A DNA stretch of 64,000 bases from Candidatus Parvarchaeota archaeon (GTDB taxonomy: Archaea > Nanobdellota > Nanobdellia > B33-G15): positions 2,253-66,252 of the forward strand of contig JAFCFZ010000004.1 in the NCBI GenBank assembly GCA_017608385.1, written 5' to 3'. The position numbers and the translations under genes are program-made. Shown here one piece after another: positions 54,049 through 64,000 of this stretch (position 1 is its first letter; every line of letters begins with the position of its first letter). Under the pieces are notes generated by a model. The model did not search any database and was not told the origin of the DNA. It saw only the letters and a list, made by a program, of their open reading frames with translations.

Positions 54049-54417
54049 CTATTCAAATACAACTAATATTCTATCATTGTCTTTTAAATAATACGAAAAT
54101 GGACTAATTTCATTACCATTGGCATAAAATGTCCAATTTCCTTGATCTAAACAAAGATTTCTCAAACAATAGATTTTATTGTCATATATTACAGGAGAAT
54201 AAGGATTTATGATACTTATTAATGAAGCATTTTCATTAACACTTATTGTTTCTTCAGGAAGTAAGTTTCCCATCTGAAACTGAAGAGTAACTGAAGCTTT
54301 GGTTTCTACAGTTCCAAAGAAGATGAATGCAGGAGCAATCATTAATAGAACTAAGATTAATGGTGTCCATTTTTTCCACGAGTCGTTCTTTTTCTTCTTA
54401 ATTACTGATTTTCTCAT
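54049..54417 (-). CDS. Hypothetical N-terminally anchored or secreted small protein
   Basis: Basic N-terminus plus a TM/signal segment, followed by a beta-rich domain with two Cys. Confidence 0.4.
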   Translation of the reverse strand: MRKSVIKKKKNDSWKKWTPLILVLLMIAPAFIFFGTVETKASVTLQFQMGNLLPEETISVNENASLISIINPYSPVIYDNKIYCLRNLCLDQGNWTFYANGNEISPFSYYLKDNDRILVVFE

Positions 54418-54526
54418 CTATTCTTCTTTGTTATTCACCCTTTAAAAATTTTAAATAGGAACATCTACTTTGAGAATTGAAAATATGTTTTAAGAAACTT
54501 TTAATAAATCACATTTTATTAGTCAA

Positions 54527-57367
54527 GTGATGAAAAAGATTCTTTTTATAGTATCAATTTTATTATTTACAATAGGTACTGCTAGGGCAGATATCTTCAC
54601 TCCATGGATTCAAGGGATATCATCATTTTTTTCAGATTACACCAATATTGCGATTGCATTGGCTTTATCTGTTGTGACAATGGCAGTTGCAAAAAAAGCA
54701 TTTGGATCTAGATATGGGGGTGGAGATAATAAGATACCAATAGCAATTGGAATTGCTGTTTTCATATTTTCAATGATTTATTTTCCCCAAACACCTGTTT
54801 CCGGTTATGTTAATGGGATCCTTTATACCCCAGGAACTGGTGGAATTGGAGTTCTTGGTGGACTTAATCTTGGAACTCTACCAGGATTGATTATATCCAT
54901 TATCTTTGTTATTGCAGTTTTTTGGGCTTGGAAAAATGGAAAATTTGAGAACAAAACTCATTGGCTTGTTTTTGTGGGGATGCTTGCAGCAACACTTATG
55001 GCATTTATATTTTCATATTTTAGAATCTATGTACTTTCAGGGGCTGCAGGTTTAGCGGCTGTTTTACTCTTCATTGCTTTCTTAATCCTTTTCATAAGGA
55101 ATATTGCAATGTCTGGTGTTAATTGGAGTAAGGCAGGTATTGGAAGATCTAAAGGAGGAGAAGATTCAATTGAAAAAGGAGATGGAAAAAGGGTGATGAG
55201 AAGGAATTTGAGGAACATGAGCAAATTGGATAAAAACATAGTAAAGATCATAAACATAAAAGACCAAAAACTCATACCTACTCTCAAAAGTTTAGCAAGT
55301 TTAATGGAATTTGCTAAGAAAGGAGTTCTTCCTGTAAAAGTAACAGGCGATGTTATGAGTGATTTAAAAAAACTAAATCTACTTTATTTAGGAACAACTA
55401 GGATATTTAAGATATTTTCTGAAGAAAAAAGATCTCGATATGCTGCTACTTCTGTAGTGTTAAAGAGAATAGCATTCAAAAGAGGAAATACAAGAAAACA
55501 AATGAAAGAAGGATTTTCAGCGTTGGAAAGATTACTCGATTCTAAAAATGTTGACTCAAAAACTAAAGAATATTTGAGAGCAATAAGAAATATTATGATA
55601 GGTGGAGGAATTAAGTTAAATGTTACCTTTAGTGTTGAAGGGGGAAGTCCAAGAGTAGAAGAGAAATCTATTATTAACTTTTTGAATGATAAGAGAATAA
55701 AGAAGAAGGTAGCTATATTCCCTATTGATGAGGGAGGTCTATCCAATCTTAGAGCGATATGGCATAACGTTGCAAATATGGTAGGTTTTAAACAACATGA
55801 AGAAGAATTGAGATTCCATTTAGATGCAGTTCAATCCAAAGTAGATCTTTCAAAGTTCGGTGTAACAAGTGAAGGACTGAAAAAAATTGCGGCAAAAAGA
55901 CCTACAGGTAAACCAGAAAGTGATTTGATGAGATCTGTTGTTGCTTTGTTCGCTTTGAAAACAAATTATTATGGAATGATAGCATATCCTTTTCACAGTT
56001 CACTTTACAAATATAGAAACAATCTTGTTACTTTAATCAAATTAATCAATGAAACTAAGAAAGCAAGAAAAATAGCTAAGAAATACAATAAGGAAATACC
56101 TGATTCAACTCAAATGGAACAGGCAATTGTTAAAATGGTTGTTCAAGAAGGACTTTACTTAGCTGATATATTCTCAATATTTTCAACTTTGTTTAATGAT
56201 GGAGAACTCAATGGTCTTTCAGTCCAAATGAGACAAGGGATGAATAGACTATATCAACGTTCTTTTAGTGGAGAACCGTTAGGTAGGGATGAGTTATTCA
56301 CTTCACTTAAAGGATTTGGATTATTTAGAAGAAAGTTTAGGGAAATGAGTTTTAAAGAAGTAAGAAAAATGGGATCTCCTAGGAGATATAGAGACACAGC
56401 ATATTACACTCTTTTCAAAAAAATAGAAGAGGGTTCAAAAAGAAAATTAGAAAGTCAAGCTCAAATTTTAGATCAAATTGCTGAAGAATTGAAAGCAAAT
56501 CCTGGAGTAAAATCTACTCCAAATGTTCAAGGTAAATGGGATAATTTGATAGGACAAATAAATAGGGAAGAGCAACTCATGCTAAAGTTAAATGAAGTTT
56601 TAAAACACTTTAAAGAGACTGACAAGAAAGAAGAATACCTTCTCAGAAAAATGTTAGGAGCTATCGAAAAAATTGAAGAACCTATTAAAGAATATTTTGA
56701 AGAGGAGGAAAAAACGGAAGAGGAAGAGAAAAAAATTGAGGAAAAAGAAGAAAAGATTGTTCATAAGATAGATGAATCATTTGCAATTCTAAACAAGAGT
56801 ATGCCGGATGTTAAAAATTTAACATCCCTAACATCATATTATTTATGGCAAGCAGAGAATTATCGTAAAGGATATTCTAATTTTTTGAAAAATGCTCGTG
56901 AGATTGGTAAATTAGTGGGAAAAACATTCATGAAAGGAAATAAGGTAAAGCCAGGAATTAGTGAAGAACTCAAGAAAGCAATTAATGAAGCATTTAATGC
57001 ATTTAATAATTATTTGGAAACACAGAAGACAGTATCAAAGAAAAAGTCAGAATTTGGAAATGGATTAAGACAACTAGTTGAGACTGGTTTGGATCCTGAT
57101 GAACTTAAAGAAATCTCTAAGATTGTTAAGAGAAAAGAAAAGGATGGAAGTAAAACTACAAAAATAATAATTAGTATCCAGAAACTAGCTGAAAGGACTA
57201 GGAAAGAAGATGCTTTAGGTAAGAAAATTAAAAGTATAGTTGATAGGCAATTTCATTCATTACCTCATGCAAAACTCATGGAAAATGTTAAAGAAGCTAA
57301 TTGGACTAATATCATGAAGATGAGAGATTTGAGAAAAGCATTGAAGGAAGAATTGAAATCTAAATAA
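54527..57367 (+). CDS. Large (946 aa) membrane protein. It has a Sec signal peptide, a polytopic N-terminal domain (about 230 aa) and a long K/E-rich predicted coiled-coil tail
   Basis: MMKKILFIVSILLFTIGTARA-DIF signal peptide, then 4-5 TM helices, then about 700 aa of charged helical repeats (EEEEKTEEEEKKIEEKEEK). Confidence 0.55.
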   Translation: MMKKILFIVSILLFTIGTARADIFTPWIQGISSFFSDYTNIAIALALSVVTMAVAKKAFGSRYGGGDNKIPIAIGIAVFIFSMIYFPQTPVSGYVNGILYTPGTGGIGVLGGLNLGTLPGLIISIIFVIAVFWAWKNGKFENKTHWLVFVGMLAATLMAFIFSYFRIYVLSGAAGLAAVLLFIAFLILFIRNIAMSGVNWSKAGIGRSKGGEDSIEKGDGKRVMRRNLRNMSKLDKNIVKIINIKDQKLIPTLKSLASLMEFAKKGVLPVKVTGDVMSDLKKLNLLYLGTTRIFKIFSEEKRSRYAATSVVLKRIAFKRGNTRKQMKEGFSALERLLDSKNVDSKTKEYLRAIRNIMIGGGIKLNVTFSVEGGSPRVEEKSIINFLNDKRIKKKVAIFPIDEGGLSNLRAIWHNVANMVGFKQHEEELRFHLDAVQSKVDLSKFGVTSEGLKKIAAKRPTGKPESDLMRSVVALFALKTNYYGMIAYPFHSSLYKYRNNLVTLIKLINETKKARKIAKKYNKEIPDSTQMEQAIVKMVVQEGLYLADIFSIFSTLFNDGELNGLSVQMRQGMNRLYQRSFSGEPLGRDELFTSLKGFGLFRRKFREMSFKEVRKMGSPRRYRDTAYYTLFKKIEEGSKRKLESQAQILDQIAEELKANPGVKSTPNVQGKWDNLIGQINREEQLMLKLNEVLKHFKETDKKEEYLLRKMLGAIEKIEEPIKEYFEEEEKTEEEEKKIEEKEEKIVHKIDESFAILNKSMPDVKNLTSLTSYYLWQAENYRKGYSNFLKNAREIGKLVGKTFMKGNKVKPGISEELKKAINEAFNAFNNYLETQKTVSKKKSEFGNGLRQLVETGLDPDELKEISKIVKRKEKDGSKTTKIIISIQKLAERTRKEDALGKKIKSIVDRQFHSLPHAKLMENVKEANWTNIMKMRDLRKALKEELKSK

Positions 57368-57418: not shown

Positions 57419-57952
57419 ATGTCAGATAGTATGTTTGGGGGCGTTGTACAGACACTTCAAAATATGGGGTTTTTTGATGTGATTCTACCTTTTTTACTTA
57501 TATTTGCAGTGATTTATGGAGTTCTAGCAAGAGCTCAAATATTTGAAGATAGAAACGATATCAATGCAGTTATTGCATTTGTTATGGGAATGCTTGTTAT
57601 AGGGTCTTCTTGGGTTGTTGGAGTTTTAACCGGATTCTTACCTATAGTTGGTTTATTGTCTGTTGTTTTTTTAGGTGGGTTTATTCTATTTGCAATGTTT
57701 GCTGGAAATGCTGAAAATATTTATGATGGAAAAGCAAAATATGTTGCAGCTGCAGTTATTCTGGTTGTTTTTCCTTTAATTTTAGTTAATATGATTGCAC
57801 CAACTTTTTGGGGGGATATGACCAATGATTGGGCATTACCTTTTAGTATGGTTGATATGGGTGTGATGGTTGCAATGGTTTTAGTTATTGGAATTATGAT
57901 ATGGATTACTAAACCAAGTGGAGGCGATGGAGGAGGTAGTTCAAGTGATTGA
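57419..57952 (+). CDS. 4-TM membrane protein of an unknown family, tandem paralog 1
   Basis: LPFLLIFAVIYGVLARAQIFEDRNDINAVIAFVMGM is conserved with paralog 3. C-terminal G/S/D tail. Confidence 0.55.
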   Translation: MSDSMFGGVVQTLQNMGFFDVILPFLLIFAVIYGVLARAQIFEDRNDINAVIAFVMGMLVIGSSWVVGVLTGFLPIVGLLSVVFLGGFILFAMFAGNAENIYDGKAKYVAAAVILVVFPLILVNMIAPTFWGDMTNDWALPFSMVDMGVMVAMVLVIGIMIWITKPSGGDGGGSSSD

Positions 57953-58478
57953 AGGAATTTTCACTGCGATATGGCAAGGTTTTGCTTCTTTAACTCCCGC
58001 AGGAGTTTCTCCTGAATATTTTTGGCCAACATTCATACTTGTTTTTGCAATGGTTTACACTATCCTAGAAAAGGTCAAAGTTTTTGGAGATATTCAACAT
58101 GGAAATAAAAGAGGAATTTATCTCATAGTTGCATTGGTTTTTGCATATTTTACAGCGAGCTCTGCATTTGCAACATTAATTATTGCAAAGATGACACCAC
58201 AGTTAGGAATGGTGCTTGTTGCAATATTAGTATTTTTGATCATATTTACTTTCCTTTCCGGAGGAGATGATATGACTGGAGAAAAATATCCAAAATGGTT
58301 GTTGTGGGTGATGGTATTAATTGGTGTCGCTTGGGTATTTGGCTCAACATTTTTTGAAGTTACAGGAACATCATTCAGTACGGGATCGTTTGCTCTTTCA
58401 CAAGCTGATATGGGAATAATATTTGCATTGGGAATCTTTGGATTTGTCCTATGGTTCCTTTTTAAAGATAAGAATTGA
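57918..58478 (+). CDS. 4-TM membrane protein, tandem paralog 2. The start is possibly the GTG at 57945
   Basis: FILVFAMVYTILEKVKVFGD is conserved with paralogs 1 and 3. It overlaps the paralog-1 stop. Confidence 0.5.
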   Translation: MEAMEEVVQVIEGIFTAIWQGFASLTPAGVSPEYFWPTFILVFAMVYTILEKVKVFGDIQHGNKRGIYLIVALVFAYFTASSAFATLIIAKMTPQLGMVLVAILVFLIIFTFLSGGDDMTGEKYPKWLLWVMVLIGVAWVFGSTFFEVTGTSFSTGSFALSQADMGIIFALGIFGFVLWFLFKDKN

Positions 58479-58484
58479 TGAAAA

Positions 58485-59027
58485 ATGGCTGAACAAACAT
58501 TTTTAGAAGCAATTGGAATTTTCCAGTACTTTGGATTACAATATTTGCTAGTTCCCCTGTTAATTTTTGTTATGACTCTTGGAATTCTTCAAAAAACCAA
58601 GATGATAAGTGATAAACCAGATATTAATGCAGCCATAGGATTCTCATTTGCTTTTGTTATTGCTATGGTACCACAATTTGTTGATTTTCTTGCTTTTTTG
58701 ATGCCATTAATGATAGGATTCATTATGATATTGTTTGGAATAGGAATGATTTTTATGTTATTTGGAGCAAAATCAGACAATTTTTTTAATTTTTTCAAGA
58801 GCCCCGGAATAATCATTCTCACTATTGTTATTTTCATGATAATAGTATTCTATTCTATTTCGGATGTTTTTGGAGATCAAATTTCTTCATGGACTTCAGA
58901 TAATAGAACAACAGGAGGAATGGGTTCTGGAGTAGAGAGAATATTTAGTCCAGAAGTATTTGGAACAGTAATCTTCATTTCAGTTGCAGCTGTGGGAGTA
59001 TATATGATTAGTGCGCAGAAATCTTAA
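58485..59027 (+). CDS. 4-TM membrane protein, tandem paralog 3
   Basis: LVPLLIFVMTLGILQKTKMISDKPDINAAIGFSFAFVIA is conserved with paralog 1. Confidence 0.55.
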   Translation: MAEQTFLEAIGIFQYFGLQYLLVPLLIFVMTLGILQKTKMISDKPDINAAIGFSFAFVIAMVPQFVDFLAFLMPLMIGFIMILFGIGMIFMLFGAKSDNFFNFFKSPGIIILTIVIFMIIVFYSISDVFGDQISSWTSDNRTTGGMGSGVERIFSPEVFGTVIFISVAAVGVYMISAQKS

Positions 59028-59672
59028 TTATTCTTTTTTAGTCTTAGTTACTTCTTTTAATTCTTTGATACTATCTGTTAAAGTAGGAACCAATTTACTC
59101 ATAACCTTATCAAGAGCTTGCATTTCAATACTTACTTCTTGCATACTCTTTCCATATTCATCTACCTTAGCTGCCATAGTAGCTTCAATAGCATCAACTC
59201 TTTTTTTGAAGTCTTCAACTTTAGAATCTATTTTATCAATCTGTTTTTCAACCTTAGCTTTCCACTCTTCCATTATCACTAATTTTTCTTCAACATCAAT
59301 CCATTTTTCTTGAATTATTTGTTCAAGAATTCTTTCAATTTCCTCAACACTTCTATCTTTTACTTCCATGCCTGGAGCTGGTGCAAAATCTGGAGAAGCT
59401 CCAAAATCCATTGTTGGCATTGCTTGTTGAGGTTGTTGTGGTAAAGGTGGTAAAGCTGTTTCGGGATTTGGGTTAGAATTTGCAGCAGATTTTAATTCAG
59501 CTTGACTCATTGCATCTTTTATTTGTTGGAATTCATATCCTTCTGCTCTTAATTGATTAATAATTTGATCATTATTCATTCCTTGATTTCTAAGATCTAA
59601 AACCTCTTTTACAGGAACTTTTTTATGAGTTCCTTCATCCTTACCTCTTAGTCTATCTAAAATTCCCATCAA
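59028..59672 (-). CDS. Coiled-coil protein with an N-terminal helical domain and a P/Q-rich low-complexity linker
   Basis: N-terminus MMGILDRLRGK...; linker PNPETALPPLPQQPQQAMP; C-terminal heptad-rich half. Confidence 0.45.
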   Translation of the reverse strand: MMGILDRLRGKDEGTHKKVPVKEVLDLRNQGMNNDQIINQLRAEGYEFQQIKDAMSQAELKSAANSNPNPETALPPLPQQPQQAMPTMDFGASPDFAPAPGMEVKDRSVEEIERILEQIIQEKWIDVEEKLVIMEEWKAKVEKQIDKIDSKVEDFKKRVDAIEATMAAKVDEYGKSMQEVSIEMQALDKVMSKLVPTLTDSIKELKEVTKTKKE

Positions 59673-60040
59673 ACACGACCTATCTCTCTTCTAATCAATT
59701 CGACCGCTTCTTCCTTTGTTAAGAATCTTGTAGGGTCAAACAAGTTAATATATCTTTCTAACACTTTTATATCTTGGTTTCTTGCAACGTTTTGCATGTC
59801 CTTTATTAGGTTTCTTAGAGCACCTTCCATTTCCTTCATATTTCCTTTGAAAGAATTGGTTTCTTCTTGTAAATCAACAATCATTTCTTTTAGTTCTTTA
59901 GTTCTTTTTAATCCACTTTCATCAATTATCTTCATTTTCATAGATAATTGTTCATATCTCTCTTCTACAAGCCTTATCCGGTTAGTTAATTGAGTAACTT
60001 GCTGATATAGAACCTGAATATAGTTTTCCTGTTTTTCCAT
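59669..60040 (-). CDS. Small coiled-coil protein, translationally coupled to the downstream coiled-coil gene by an ATGA overlap
   Basis: 123 aa, helical and heptad-rich. It is divergent from the secretion ATPase. Confidence 0.45.
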   Translation of the reverse strand: MEKQENYIQVLYQQVTQLTNRIRLVEERYEQLSMKMKIIDESGLKRTKELKEMIVDLQEETNSFKGNMKEMEGALRNLIKDMQNVARNQDIKVLERYINLFDPTRFLTKEEAVELIRREIGRV

Positions 60041-60118: not shown

Positions 60119-62401
60119 ATGCCCGAAACCAAAAAACCCTGTTCATATACAGTGGAAATTGAAGGAAACCAAAAGAATTTGGTAGTTAATTGTATTGGTT
60201 GTTTTTTATATCCTAGCATAGAGGATAACAAAGCATGTATGGAAAGAGTTGTGGACTATATAATAGCATCAGGTACGCCAACAAATGTTATTCTTTCAAG
60301 TAGCAGAAACATAATTTATCCTGTTGAACAAACAAGGATGTTGGTTGAAATTGCAAACCTCCATAAAAAATTTGTCAAAGAACAAAATGTTTTTGATATA
60401 AATTTAATATCTCCTCATGATAGAGAAGCTTTGCCAGAAAGATTAGCAACAATGAAGGAAATCGTTCTGAACAATTTGAGGGGAGATCCTATTGGTGCAT
60501 ATGTTCAAACTTTAAGAGAATTAAGAGAACAAAAAGCAAAACTGCCTTCTGCAACTCCAAAAGAAAGATCTAGTTTGGAAGCATTTATCAAAGTCTTGGT
60601 GAACATTCTCGAATCTATCGAAGGAACTTCTATCATTAAAAAAGCAATGCCAAAACTTCCTGGACACAAGATAGGAGATAGAGAAGTTTACAGAGATATA
60701 TTCAAGCCCTTGATAAAACCAAATTTTATGCTCACTCGTTTAATGGCTGAACCTCCAATAAAAGCACAAGAAATAGATTCTTACACTATTGGAGGCAAAA
60801 ATAAATCAGATGTTCTTATTTTCAAAGTTCCTGGAAAAATTCAATATCTTTACCATCTAAATCCTCCGGAATTCAAGTTAGATGAAGATGCATATGTTCT
60901 GTTAGATGAAGCAAGAAATGTTTTAGCAAAACATAAACCAGGAGAAAAAGAATTTGTTGACCCAAAAAGAGTCAGGGGTATATTTACAAACATTAGTAAG
61001 GATTTGTTAGAACAATTAGCAAATTCTAGAAGAATGAAGTTGAAGTATGATGAAATAGAAAAATTGGCTGAAATACTTGTTAGATTAACAGTTGGATTCG
61101 GTCTTATTGAAGTTCTTTTAGAAGATGAAAAGATTGAAGATATTTACATAAATGCACCCGTAGGAACTGAGAAAGTTTTCATAAAACATGCAGAATATGG
61201 AGAATGTTTTACTAATATTATTCCTAGTTTCACAGAGGCAGAAGCTTGGGCTTCAAGATTTCGTATGATTTCAGGAAGACCTTTGGATGAAGCTAATCCT
61301 GTTTTAGATGCTGAAATAATTACACCTACTGTTTTTTCAAGAGCCGCGGTTATTCAAAATCCAATAAGTCCAAAAGGACTTTCATTTGCATTTAGAAGAC
61401 ATAGAGCAAAGCCATGGACTCTTCCTTTGTTTATAAAACAAAAATATCTATCTCCCCTTTCTGCAGGATTACTTTCTTTCTTAGTTGATGGATCAAGATC
61501 TATCTTAGTTGCAGGAACAAGAGGAGCAGGTAAAACCAGTCTTTTGACAGCACTAATGGTTGAAATCATGAGAAAGTTCAGGGTGATTACAATAGAAGAT
61601 ACAATGGAATTACCAACTGAGTCATTCAAAGAAATAGGATATAATATATTACCACTGAAGGTTAGAAGTGCAATTGTTGGAAGTAAATCTGAAATGAGCG
61701 CATCAGATGGGATAAGAACTTCTTTACGTTTAGGAGATTCTTCTTTGATTATAGGTGAGGTCAGAAGTAAAGAAGCTGTTGCTCTGTATGAAGCAATGAG
61801 GATAGGAGCGTTGGCTAATGTGGTGGCAGGAACAATTCATGGAGATAGCCCATATGGTGTTTTTGATAGAGTAGTTAATGATTTGGGAGTTCCAAGAACA
61901 AGTTTTAAGGCAACAGATATTATAATTGTAGCTAATAAAATCAGAAGTCCAGATTTGCTTTCAGAGATGAGAAGAGTTATGAGTGTAACCGAAGTAAGAA
62001 AACATTGGGAAGATGATCCCGTTAGAGAAAAGGGATTTGAAAATTTAATGGAATACAATTCAAAAAAAGATATTTTAGAACCTTCCCGTAATTTGATGGA
62101 AGGAGAGAGTGAAGTTCTAAAATCAATTGGTTCTAGGGTAAAAGAGTGGATTGGTGACTGGGATAGGATATGGGATAATATTCAATTAAGAGCAGACATA
62201 AAGAGTATGATAGTGAAATATTCAGATGCAGATCCCTCTATTTTGGAGGCAAACTCTGTGGTCAGTTCCAATGATAAATTTCATATGATATTTGAACAAC
62301 TTTCAAAAGAAACAGGATATCCTGAGAGTGATAGGGTAAAAGCTGATTTTGAAGAATGGTTAAAAGCAAAGATAAAGAAAAAAAATGAAAAAAAGCTATG
62401 A
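60119..62401 (+). CDS. Type II/IV secretion-superfamily ATPase (FlaI/TadA/VirB11-like), atypically long at 760 aa
   Basis: Walker A VAGTRGAGKTSLL, Asp/Walker-B box RVITIEDTMEL, the conserved LRLGDSSLIIGEVRSKEA segment, and His box GTIHGDSP. The N-terminal extension before the ATPase core is about 450 aa. Confidence 0.8.
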   Translation: MPETKKPCSYTVEIEGNQKNLVVNCIGCFLYPSIEDNKACMERVVDYIIASGTPTNVILSSSRNIIYPVEQTRMLVEIANLHKKFVKEQNVFDINLISPHDREALPERLATMKEIVLNNLRGDPIGAYVQTLRELREQKAKLPSATPKERSSLEAFIKVLVNILESIEGTSIIKKAMPKLPGHKIGDREVYRDIFKPLIKPNFMLTRLMAEPPIKAQEIDSYTIGGKNKSDVLIFKVPGKIQYLYHLNPPEFKLDEDAYVLLDEARNVLAKHKPGEKEFVDPKRVRGIFTNISKDLLEQLANSRRMKLKYDEIEKLAEILVRLTVGFGLIEVLLEDEKIEDIYINAPVGTEKVFIKHAEYGECFTNIIPSFTEAEAWASRFRMISGRPLDEANPVLDAEIITPTVFSRAAVIQNPISPKGLSFAFRRHRAKPWTLPLFIKQKYLSPLSAGLLSFLVDGSRSILVAGTRGAGKTSLLTALMVEIMRKFRVITIEDTMELPTESFKEIGYNILPLKVRSAIVGSKSEMSASDGIRTSLRLGDSSLIIGEVRSKEAVALYEAMRIGALANVVAGTIHGDSPYGVFDRVVNDLGVPRTSFKATDIIIVANKIRSPDLLSEMRRVMSVTEVRKHWEDDPVREKGFENLMEYNSKKDILEPSRNLMEGESEVLKSIGSRVKEWIGDWDRIWDNIQLRADIKSMIVKYSDADPSILEANSVVSSNDKFHMIFEQLSKETGYPESDRVKADFEEWLKAKIKKKNEKKL

Positions 62402-64000
62402 TGAGATTTTTAATAAATATATAAAAGAAACTCCTACTAAGAAGCAGACAGTTAGTAGGGATTTTAAGTTATTTCTAAAAGATGAAAGAACTGGATTTAT
62501 GAAAAGATATGAATCTTTATGTAAATCCGCAGGGAAAATATTAATGGTCAGTATACCTGATGAAGAAAAGAAAAGGCTTCAAAATGCAATCAAACTCAAT
62601 GCCATGTCTGTAACTCCTGAAGAAATTGGTTCGTTGTCTCTTCTTGCTCTTTTAATGACAATAATGTTTACTGGAGTTGTTGCTGTTATCTTCTTCATGT
62701 TTAATTTATTAACTGGAGTAATGTCTTTGATTGTTTTGGGCTTAGGTCTAGCGGGTATTTTGATGTATGATAAAATACGTAAATATCCCATTGGTTTGAT
62801 AGAAACAAGAAGAATAAGGTCTTCAAATGAATTGGTCCTGTCTATATTGTACATTGTTTCTTATATGAGACACACTTCCAACTTAGAGGAAGCAATAAGA
62901 TTTGCTGCTTCTAATCTTGAAGGACCTCTCTCTAATGATTTTATCAAAATGATATGGGATATTCAAGCTAGAAAATATTCAGATATCCAAGACGCACTAA
63001 ATAATTATTTAATGAATTGGAAAGAATTCAATCCTGCATTTGTTGATGCAATGTATTTGATAAGAAGCACTCTGTATCAAGGAGATGAAGCAAATAGATT
63101 GGCTCTTTTAGATGAATCAGTCAATAGAATATTAGATGGTACATTTAGAAATATGGTAAATTATGCTTCTTCTTTAAGAAATCCTATTAACACAATTTAC
63201 ATGATGGGTATTGTTTTACCTGTTTTAGGAATGGTAATGTTTCCAATGGTTTCTACTTTTATGGCAGAATCAATAAGTACCGAAATTATGATAGTAGGTT
63301 ATAATATAATCCTCCCTCTCCTTGTTTTCTTGCTTGCAAAAAATATTCTCAAAAATAGACCATCTGGTTTTCCTTATGTTGATATATCTGGACATCCAGA
63401 AATTGCAAAGAGGCATTATTTTTACTTGGGAAAGAAACAATATCCTGCAATAATCCCAGCGATTATAGCTTTCTTAGTTATGGCAGGTCCTTTTATATTC
63501 CTTTTAATGATAACGACTGAAATATCTGAAATACAGATTTATTTGAGCATTCCAATTACTTTTGCTGCTGCTGCTGCAATTTATGTATACACTCGCTTGA
63601 CAACAACAAAACCAATGAGTATTCTCAAAAAAGTCTATTCTGTTGAAAATGATTTTTCTCATGCAATTTTTCAATTAGGAACTATTTTAGTTCAAGAAGT
63701 TCCTGTCGAGCAGGCATTTATTAAAGTAGCTTCATCAATGAAGGGTTCTGAAACATCTGATTTTTTGAGAAGAGTAGTTAATAATATTAGAAGTGTAGGT
63801 TTAAGCGCTTCAGATGCTCTCTTTCACAAAGAATATGGTGCTGTTTTGATGTTCCCTTCTCCAATAATCAAAAGTACAATGAAAGTTTTAGTAGATACAT
63901 CTAAAAAGAGTTTGAAAGATGCAGGAATAGCTCTTATTTTTGTTTCAAAATATCTCAGAAGCTTGAAAGAAATAGATGATAGGGTTAATGATTCTCTTGA
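62385..64000 (+). CDS. FlaJ/TadC/GspF-like membrane platform protein (3' end runs off the window)
   Basis: The ORF is not in the supplied track because it has no stop inside the window. ATG at 62385 (MKKSYDEIF...). The layout is a cytoplasmic N-terminus, a TM pair, a ~150-aa cytoplasmic helical domain, then more TM helices. This is the T2SSF-like arrangement, immediately downstream of the ATPase. Confidence 0.6.
   Translation, partial: MKKSYDEIFNKYIKETPTKKQTVSRDFKLFLKDERTGFMKRYESLCKSAGKILMVSIPDEEKKRLQNAIKLNAMSVTPEEIGSLSLLALLMTIMFTGVVAVIFFMFNLLTGVMSLIVLGLGLAGILMYDKIRKYPIGLIETRRIRSSNELVLSILYIVSYMRHTSNLEEAIRFAASNLEGPLSNDFIKMIWDIQARKYSDIQDALNNYLMNWKEFNPAFVDAMYLIRSTLYQGDEANRLALLDESVNRILDGTFRNMVNYASSLRNPINTIYMMGIVLPVLGMVMFPMVSTFMAESISTEIMIVGYNIILPLLVFLLAKNILKNRPSGFPYVDISGHPEIAKRHYFYLGKKQYPAIIPAIIAFLVMAGPFIFLLMITTEISEIQIYLSIPITFAAAAAIYVYTRLTTTKPMSILKKVYSVENDFSHAIFQLGTILVQEVPVEQAFIKVASSMKGSETSDFLRRVVNNIRSVGLSASDALFHKEYGAVLMFPSPIIKSTMKVLVDTSKKSLKDAGIALIFVSKYLRSLKEIDDRVNDSL

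Follow-up and report, generated by a model that had tools for sequence, protein, structure and literature searches.

A gene for a giant membrane protein, located at positions 54527 to 57367 of a 64,000-nucleotide (nt) stretch of DNA from a Candidatus Parvarchaeota archaeon (contig JAFCFZ010000004.1; the whole stretch is here called the window), may encode a lineage-specific accessory subunit of a DPANN membrane machine that has a secretion ATPase of the PilB/FlaI type at its center. This explanation, drawn from sequence comparison and prediction, is preferred only tentatively and is given somewhat less than an even chance. The N-terminal membrane anchor of the giant is probably a very divergent member of the superfamily that includes three small tandem paralogs encoded directly downstream, and its nearest relatives are probably the proteins of a family, here called T5, encoded at the opposite end of the same gene module in Woesearchaeota. 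The features of the giant and its immediate surroundings are as follows (aa, amino acids; TM, transmembrane; ORF, open reading frame; other loci are cited by their numbers in our comparison, L004 and so on).

54499..54509, + strand: candidate TATA-box-like A/T-rich element TTTTAATAAAT, read from the sequence, ~20 to 30 nt before the start codon.
54527..57367, + strand: giant ORF from GTG 54527; the likelier start is ATG 54530, giving 945 aa; homologues at the equivalent position in L004, L089/L088, L090 and L091.
54527..54589, + strand: putative Sec-type signal peptide, aa 1-21 (MMKK followed by a hydrophobic core and TARA before D), by inspection of the sequence; the AxA-type motif is kept in P0071, P0072 and P0073.
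54590..55102, + strand: membrane anchor, aa 22-192, made up of an amphipathic external segment and five TM helices, predicted N-out/C-in from hydropathy and K+R counts.
55103..57364, + strand: tail, aa 193-946, predicted cytoplasmic; fast-evolving and free of Cys, with a net charge of +51 and, in a low-confidence model, helical throughout.
55958..56206, + strand: best-conserved tail stretch in alignments, aa ~478-560, where relatives have a V/SNIKFL motif.
56615..56761, + strand: conserved KEEYLLRKMLGAIEKIEE motif followed by an acidic E/K low-complexity run, aa ~697-745, from alignments and sequence.

The giant is encoded by one ORF of 946 codons, and the public protein record begins at the likelier start, one codon past the GTG. 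G+C content is 26 to 35% across the window and that of the giant is similar to its surroundings; the window also carries the archaeal genes Orc1/Cdc6 and FEN1. The element TTTTAATAAAT is a possible promoter of the giant's own, which would leave a very short leader; a scan for bacterial promoters and terminators is uninformative for archaeal sequence. Divergent from the giant, a small gene (54049-54417, - strand) encodes a 122-aa protein with an N-terminal hydrophobic helix and no family match, and counterparts of 127 to 143 aa occupy the same position in L088, L090 and L091. Searches of the giant against Pfam, NCBIfam, PHROGs and PADLOC returned nothing above noise, the sole sub-threshold match (FixS) falling on a TM helix, and a profile search of the PDB with the giant-family alignment returned no match. 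Moreover, no nucleic-acid-binding domain was detected in the giant in the Pfam, NCBIfam and PDB searches. An origin in a defence system or a phage, considered in view of the rapid divergence described below, was rejected in view of the absence of PADLOC and PHROG support, a G+C content like that of the surroundings and stable synteny.

An initial annotation of the window, made from the letters alone, had described the giant as a cleavable-looking signal peptide, a polytopic anchor and a very long charged helical region, an overall architecture that is borne out by sequence, hydropathy and a low-confidence structure model; the strings that it quoted (MMKKILFIVSILLFTIGTARA before DIF, FFSDYTNIAIALALSVVTMAVAKKAFGS...IPIAIGIAVFIFSMI, and EEEEKTEEEEKKIEEKEEK at aa 724-742) are all present. 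By inspection, the N terminus has Sec-type n, h and c regions, the residues at -3 and -1 being small, and the signal-peptide motif is kept in all family members, the relatives' sites being ANA before Q, ASA before Q and SKA before G. Hydropathy indicated five hydrophobic segments, at aa 39-57, 69-86, 117-135, 145-165 and 168-192. The predicted external segments of the anchor contain 0, 0 and 1 K/R residues, and the predicted internal loops contain 1 and 3 within their bounds, with 4 in loop 1 when flanking Lys residues are counted (AKKAFGSRYGGGDNK). By this positive-inside count the tail is predicted to be cytoplasmic, and it would be cytoplasmic either way, as five TM helices remain if the signal peptide is cleaved and six are present if it is not. 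We conclude that the N-terminal part of the giant, as read from hydropathy and residue content, consists of a Sec-type signal peptide, which is conserved, and then a predicted five-helix membrane domain.

Downstream of the giant the window contains a conserved gene module with the following parts.

57419..57952, + strand: paralog copy 1, 177 aa, amphipathic N-helix and five hydrophobic helices.
57918..58478, + strand: paralog copy 2, 186 aa when read from GTG and 183 aa in the public record, which starts at ATG 57927; overlaps the end of copy 1; the sub-family closest to T5 and the anchor.
58485..59027, + strand: paralog copy 3, 180 aa.
59028..59672, - strand: conserved 214-aa protein, coiled coil in its C-terminal half, encoded convergently with the paralogs.
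59669..60040, - strand: conserved 123-aa coiled-coil protein.
60119..62401, + strand: secretion ATPase of the PilB/FlaI/TadA/GspE type (Pfam T2SSE, 1.1e-17) with an N-terminal extension of ~300 aa.
62385..64000, + strand: polytopic membrane protein of ~700 aa, the gene for which shares 17 nt (62385-62401) with the end of that for the ATPase and runs past the edge of the window.

The giant lies 51 nt upstream of paralog 1 and is co-oriented with it, and the ATPase lies 2.7 kilobases downstream of the giant on the same strand. Depending on the start codon, the ORFs of paralogs 1 and 2 share 26 to 35 nt (57918-57952), and this overlap together with that of the ATPase and large membrane protein genes suggests translational coupling within the module. 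The ATPase scored ~125 bits with the NCBIfam TadA and FlaI models, under their cut-offs, and matched 2OAP, CpaF and FlaI in the PDB; all other parts of the module stayed below the curated cut-offs of Pfam and NCBIfam. As initially annotated, the three genes downstream of the giant are paralogous, with a BLASTP E value of 4e-10 between them and positional sub-profile matches of 99.4 to 100%. An AlphaFold model of paralog 1 (predicted local distance difference test [pLDDT] score of 79) has an amphipathic N-helix and five hydrophobic helices, not the four that the annotation had assigned to a "4-TM" domain, and a Foldseek search of the PDB with this model gave no meaningful match (best E value, 3.3). 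The paralog family has 69 database relatives, all of 113 to 207 aa and none fused, and members occur in Woesearchaeota, Nanoarchaeia and Parvarchaeota genomes.

Across genomes scanned at one per species, tblastn confirmed 505 paralog matches, almost all of them in DPANN archaea, and 80 DPANN loci kept from these were compared. The recurrent order in the 80 loci is a gene of ~95 aa, the three paralogs, the two convergent coiled-coil genes, an ATPase of ~760 aa and a polytopic protein of ~700 aa. In L014, L016, L018, L042, L043 and L065 the ATPase ORFs are 1075 to 1463 aa long, 300 to 700 codons above the usual length, which could reflect inteins or extra domains. Downstream of the module in L004 are Cys-rich, N-terminally anchored proteins, which are putatively secreted and are at most candidate pilins. 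Genes of the "membrane anchor plus long tail" kind, unrelated to the giant, occupy its slot in L006, L009 and L010, and in L015, where the single hydrophobic segment is not N terminal; others follow the large membrane protein in L050 and L051. The giant's tail has no similarity to the tails of these six proteins, and HMM (hidden Markov model) comparison of their anchors with that of the giant detected none either. One of them, at L010 8260-9936 (Woesearchaeota), has four TM helices followed by carboxypeptidase-regulatory/immunoglobulin-like beta-sandwich domains (Pfam, 8e-14) that are likely external, a makeup indicating that the slot upstream of the paralogs is filled by very different proteins in different lineages.

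T5 was defined here by jackhmmer searches from proteins of L050 and L051. Its layout is a signal peptide (by inspection), an external Gly/Tyr-rich stretch and five TM helices, found either as proteins of ~206 to 243 aa or as the N-terminal domain of proteins of 719 to 762 aa, in which a tail of ~500 aa follows. Its members are encoded at the positions below.

L050 16578-18737 and L050 18763-19383
L051 17357-19645
L075 18839-19570
L041 15696-16322

T5 genes form the downstream end of the module, and for the L041 member and the first of the two L050 members the gene immediately before is that of the large membrane protein. The members in L050 (719 aa) and L051 (762 aa) bear, like the giant, long charged tails that are predicted to be cytoplasmic. 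Within the L051 tail, aa ~459-489 gave a weak DnaJ (J-domain) match that includes the HPD motif (E value of 0.0057, below the cut-off); if real, it would put that tail in the cytoplasm and tie the machine to Hsp70.

Profile comparisons connected the giant's anchor to T5 and T5 to the paralogs. Among 398 multi-TM ORFs, the top match of the anchor profile was the T5 member L041 15696-16322, with 129 aligned columns. In nine alignment combinations, hhalign probabilities for T5 versus the anchor were 82 to 95% (median, 90), with a median length of 101 columns (the inspected alignment had 76); with the signal peptides removed they were 47 to 76% over 74 to 78 columns, and another T5-anchor run gave 72%. 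T5 matched paralog copy 2 at 65 to 87% over 111 to 126 columns, with 13 to 50% in the reverse direction. Moreover, a T5 HMM searched against 1,534 ORFs retrieved its own five members and then a series of ~35 ORFs that were nearly all paralog-family members, with E values down to 7e-5. A merged T5 and anchor profile scored 92% both against copy 2 and against a 61-sequence alignment of the paralog family, through regions that were different but collinear. The kinship initially annotated between the anchor and the neighboring small membrane proteins is thereby kept in an indirect form, through T5 and copy 2, while its direct tests remained sub-threshold. The profile comparisons neither plainly gave nor plainly withheld the similarity whose absence the annotation had named as refuting it. 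The small membrane proteins, T5 and the anchor were also tried as pieces of the platform-like large membrane protein, and that candidate was rejected (hhalign, at most 2.1%). We consider a distant common origin of the anchor, T5 and the paralogs somewhat more likely than not, and we read the anchor as probably belonging to the signal-peptide-bearing T5 branch and not as a recent fourth copy of the paralogs.

The giant family itself is small. A word-indexed search of 5.8 billion protein clusters with the full giant found only the giant, and one with the anchor alignment found only a 96-aa fragment. Searched exhaustively with phmmer, 1.84 billion representatives yielded four proteins, namely, the giant, P0071 (909 aa), P0072 (898 aa) and the 96-aa fragment, and a scan of metagenome contigs added two members, one of 985 aa and one truncated. 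An intact giant ORF is present at the same syntenic position in at least four genomes. Every full-length member is preceded by a Na/Ca exchanger, a multi-TM protein and a small minus-strand gene and is followed by the three tandem paralogs and then by the two minus-strand coiled-coil genes. The L004 and L089 loci reach further and have the ATPase and the large membrane protein next, and L090 has the same order but ends before the ATPase. We conclude from the few members found, their common synteny and the kept signal-peptide motif that the giant is real and conserved and is confined to one small lineage.

If the giant is an accessory subunit of the ATPase machine, its anchor would insert with the N terminus outside and co-assemble in the membrane with the three paralogs, and the basic, segmented alpha-helical tail of ~750 aa would remain in the cytoplasm beneath the machine. 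There the tail might act as a scaffold or tether that contacts the ATPase (with its unexplained N-terminal extension of 300 aa), the pair of small coiled-coil proteins or the inner side of the membrane, which is anionic. A broader proposal is that the three paralogs, T5 and the anchor constitute one DPANN-specific five-helix superfamily that forms the membrane core of an undescribed secretion-ATPase machine, and that its signal-peptide-bearing members are adaptors for interchangeable cytoplasmic tails, by which each lineage would customize positioning, regulation or loading. The tail would then be a 750-aa basic helical scaffold here and possibly a J-domain-containing one elsewhere. We regard this extension as speculative and, taken as a whole, unlikely.

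Several observations weigh against an accessory subunit. The giant occurs only in the window's lineage and is absent from ~75 other loci that bear the module; the module works without it there, and thus it cannot be a core part. The giant may be served by promoter-like and T-rich terminator-like signals of its own, and its co-transcription with the module is at most presumed. The direct match between anchor and paralogs is short and sub-threshold (16 to 24 columns; 0.3 to 22% for the whole family), and the T5-anchor link varies with the way in which alignments were built, one run with default alignments giving only 20%. The full-length AlphaFold model of the giant, built on a three-sequence alignment, is all-helical with a pLDDT of 42.7 and is unusable for a fold search. 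Finally, orthologues of the large membrane protein had no match in Pfam, NCBIfam or the PDB, and its label as a platform protein (FlaJ/TadC) comes from position only.

The first two of these points would also favor a giant that is merely a neighbor of the module, that is, a membrane-anchored cytoplasmic protein unrelated to the ATPase machinery, the basic tail of which might, for example, tether DNA, RNA or a cytoskeletal element, and which inheritance within a single lineage has kept adjacent. Such a role would suit the net charge of the tail (+51 in the window and +22 and +31 in two relatives), and the synteny of the lineage does reach upstream into genes unrelated to the module (the Na/Ca exchanger, FEN1 and Orc1). 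The anchor's sole detectable relatives, T5 and copy 2, are nevertheless parts of the module, non-homologous anchor-plus-tail genes recur at the same spot in L006, L009, L010 and L015, and the searches above revealed no domain that would bind nucleic acid. We consider mere adjacency unlikely, though with an appreciable chance of being correct, and keep the accessory subunit as the preferred explanation.

A further rival is that the resemblance among anchor, T5 and paralogs is convergent, reflecting only short hydrophobic helices and a basic K-x-x-FG loop, in which case the giant would be an orphan outside its lineage. Sequence identities are 10 to 20%, the profiles are thin (five to six sequences; effective number of sequences [Neff], ~2 to 3) and the probabilities swing with the method, from 20% to 82 to 95% for T5 versus the anchor and from 2 to 14% to 87.5% for T5 versus the paralogs. 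Three control membrane families taken from the same genomes, however, never exceeded 1.4% throughout, or 1.1% in the nine T5-anchor combinations. Moreover, the alignments are collinear while covering different parts of the domain in different comparisons, and the matches are enriched specifically among proteins of the same module. We consider convergence distinctly doubtful.

The initial annotation had suggested that the anchor may be a fourth copy of the tandem domain fused to a ~700-aa charged coiled coil, as a long fibrous or spacer domain; taken literally, this would be a recent copy. BLASTP of the giant against the three paralogs gave E values of 2.4, 4.7 and 0.069, the paralog-family HMM scored -5 bits against the giant, and hhalign gave 1% for the giant as a single sequence, 17 to 22% for family profiles and 0.3 to 3% in the reverse direction. 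The by-eye match behind the proposal was recovered in the same register by profile-profile comparison, and in that sense it stands, but what aligned with the whole family was a stretch of 16 to 19 columns (P of ~1e-3) at the end of TM1 with the K-x-x-FG loop, LALSVVTMAVAKKA-FG against LIFAVIYGVLARAQIFE. All 60 block-shuffled decoys fell short of the observed score, under a null that is lenient since such shuffles may keep a short block intact, and reversed decoys were also beaten. With the paralog profile, the three giant-family anchors ranked 5th to 6th against 128 other multi-TM ORFs of the same genomes. The closest sub-family was copy 2, whose sub-profile gave 61 to 67% over only 17 to 24 columns and whose N-terminal helix motif is alike (IFTPWIQGISS versus IFTAIWQGFAS in the comparison of giant anchor and copy 2).

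A fourth copy would also account for the layout common to anchor and paralogs, an amphipathic N-helix and five hydrophobic helices predicted N-out/C-in (from the paralog model and, for the anchor, from hydropathy and K+R counts). Of the paralogs' N-terminal block G..DV.LPFLLVF...EKTK.FG, however, the anchor matches only the ...AKKAFG end, and the residues P24, F25, L26 and L27, nearly invariant in the paralog family, have no counterpart in it. The paralog norm is, moreover, a stand-alone protein of ~160 to 210 aa with no signal peptide and, among the 69 relatives, no fusion, whereas the giant is a 946-aa protein with a signal peptide. We regard the combination of a fourth copy and a coiled-coil fiber as improbable, and both a recent copy and, on the evidence that follows, a continuous coiled coil are largely refuted.

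The tail is only moderately charged (34% of its residues), with K at 14.1%, E at 9.4%, R at 6.0% and D at 3.8%, compared with 10.8, 6.1, 3.6 and 4.5%, respectively, in greedy-selected window ORFs of at least 150 aa. The enrichment in K and E that had been annotated as extreme is thus present but was overstated, the true E/K run being limited to aa 721-745. Heptad periodicity was scored by a simple and crude home-made measure with a threshold at the 99th percentile of shuffles, and the fractions of residues above the threshold were as follows.

Giant tail: 4%
Tropomyosin: 96%
123-aa neighbor: 72%
214-aa neighbor: 33%
ATPase, FEN1 and Orc1 (globular controls): 0%

The 4% in the tail thus compares with 72 to 96% in real coiled coils. 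Proline (n = 17) and glycine (n = 47) are spread along the tail, and spurious coiled-coil Pfam matches, of which each coiled-coil neighbor collected about a dozen, were absent from the giant. The low-confidence AlphaFold model agrees with a helical tail and splits it into ~20 helices of 8 to 68 residues each. Most of its highest-confidence part is at aa ~478-560, where 10-residue pLDDT means are 49 to 68, with the peak of 71 just past it at aa 561-570. We conclude that the tail is helical yet is not a continuous coiled coil, with Gly and Pro breaks throughout. Its weak sequence constraint, variable length and insertions fit a scaffold or spacer role better than catalysis.

A surface fiber or adhesin that extends outside the cell for host contact, which the word "fibrous" in the initial annotation implied and which would draw on the signal peptide, on tail divergence as fast as in an arms-race surface protein and on the reliance of DPANN archaea on cell contact (PMC11291902), is very improbable, because the five TM helices after a cleaved signal peptide (or six with it uncleaved) and the concentration of K/R in predicted inner loops and tail place the C terminus in the cytoplasm. 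In addition, the tail has no cysteine and, over 754 aa, only seven N-X-S/T sequons, in contrast to the Cys-rich proteins of the module that are putatively secreted, and an HPD motif like that of J-domains is present in the related tail of L051.

The preferred explanation, an accessory subunit with a cytoplasmic tail, has functional parallels in known systems. FlaX (ArlX) is a membrane-anchored, ring-forming scaffold of the crenarchaeal archaellum (PMC5019145); like the giant, it is a lineage-specific accessory with an N-terminal membrane anchor and a helical body in the cytoplasm, and its gene neighbors that of a FlaI-type ATPase. It differs in having a single TM helix, ~250 aa, clear coiled coils and rings, whereas the giant has a signal peptide, five TM helices and a tail of 750 aa in which heptads are not sustained, and Pfam, NCBIfam and PDB searches revealed no FlaX-like sequence similarity in the giant. 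GspL/PilM-N-O-type proteins of type II secretion and type IV pili are likewise membrane-anchored partners that join a cytoplasmic ATPase to a membrane platform, but they are bitopic and much shorter and have defined actin-like or ferredoxin-like folds, and no similarity to them was detected in the giant. By analogy, the giant would resemble FlaX/ArlX, GspL and PilN/O in function while sharing neither sequence nor architecture with them.

Nearer comparisons are found within the module. The three downstream paralogs, an unnamed DPANN family with no consistent or above-cut-off Pfam match and no NCBIfam model, are like the giant in their five helices, layout, K-x-x-FG loop after TM1, N-terminal amphipathic helix, locus and strand, and they differ in lacking a signal peptide, in their length of 113 to 207 aa and in the conserved G..DV.LPFLLVF block that is absent from the giant. 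T5 shares with the giant the signal peptide, an external segment, the 5-TM layout and the ATPase module, and two of its members have long charged tails; its genes, however, stand at the downstream end of the module whereas the giant stands upstream of the paralogs, its tails are dissimilar and its Gly/Tyr-rich external stretch is absent from the giant. Parts of the literature describe type-IV-pilus-like "dark matter" islands with unannotated genes in DPANN genomes (Makarova et al. 2019, PMC6393860), alongside surveys of archaeal type IV filaments (TFF) (PMC4858521; bioRxiv 10.64898/2026.04.22.720090), and these islands, as described there, are similar in having a secretion ATPase and a large membrane protein amid unannotated membrane or secreted proteins. 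Targeted term searches of these three texts returned no passage on the tandem paralogs, the two coiled-coil genes, T5 or the giant.

Divergence between the window and its closest relative, L004, was uneven along the locus.

ATPase: 82% identity, 1.75 bits/residue
Coiled-coil proteins: 72 to 84% identity, 1.38 to 1.71 bits/residue
Paralogs: 49 to 58% identity, 0.84 to 1.11 bits/residue
Anchor: 45 to 48% identity, 0.60 bits/residue
Tail: ~20% identity, 0.04 bits/residue

The tails are still homologous, as indicated by collinear motifs (KEEYLLRKMLGAIEKIEE versus KEDYVLRRILPVIGKLEE) and by the V/SNIKFL region of the relatives. Between L004 and L089 the tails remain 28% identical over 525 aa, and the window tail is the most divergent of the set. 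The window tail is further from those of L004 and L089 than those two are from each other, and yet, at the genes for the ATPase, the coiled-coil proteins and the large membrane protein, it is the window and L004 that form the closer pair. This points to a lineage-specific acceleration of the window tail. In the 985-aa member (L090 6001-8958), the tail has an insertion of ~130 aa that includes a repeated YLxSKQ.TPE..Y..L(T/S)K....KW..F segment, and this repeat indicates that tail length changes through internal duplication.

As a narrow lineage-specific accessory, the giant would have little direct impact by itself. Its worth is as a pointer to a module conserved across Woesearchaeota, Nanoarchaeia and Parvarchaeota, which is the more promising object. 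These archaea live by cell contact and with very few genes, and nearly all of them keep the module; thus the machine that it encodes is probably central to their biology. Together with the T5 fusions, the giant suggests where lineage-specific cytoplasmic parts may plug into that machine and offers a starting point for structural and interaction studies.

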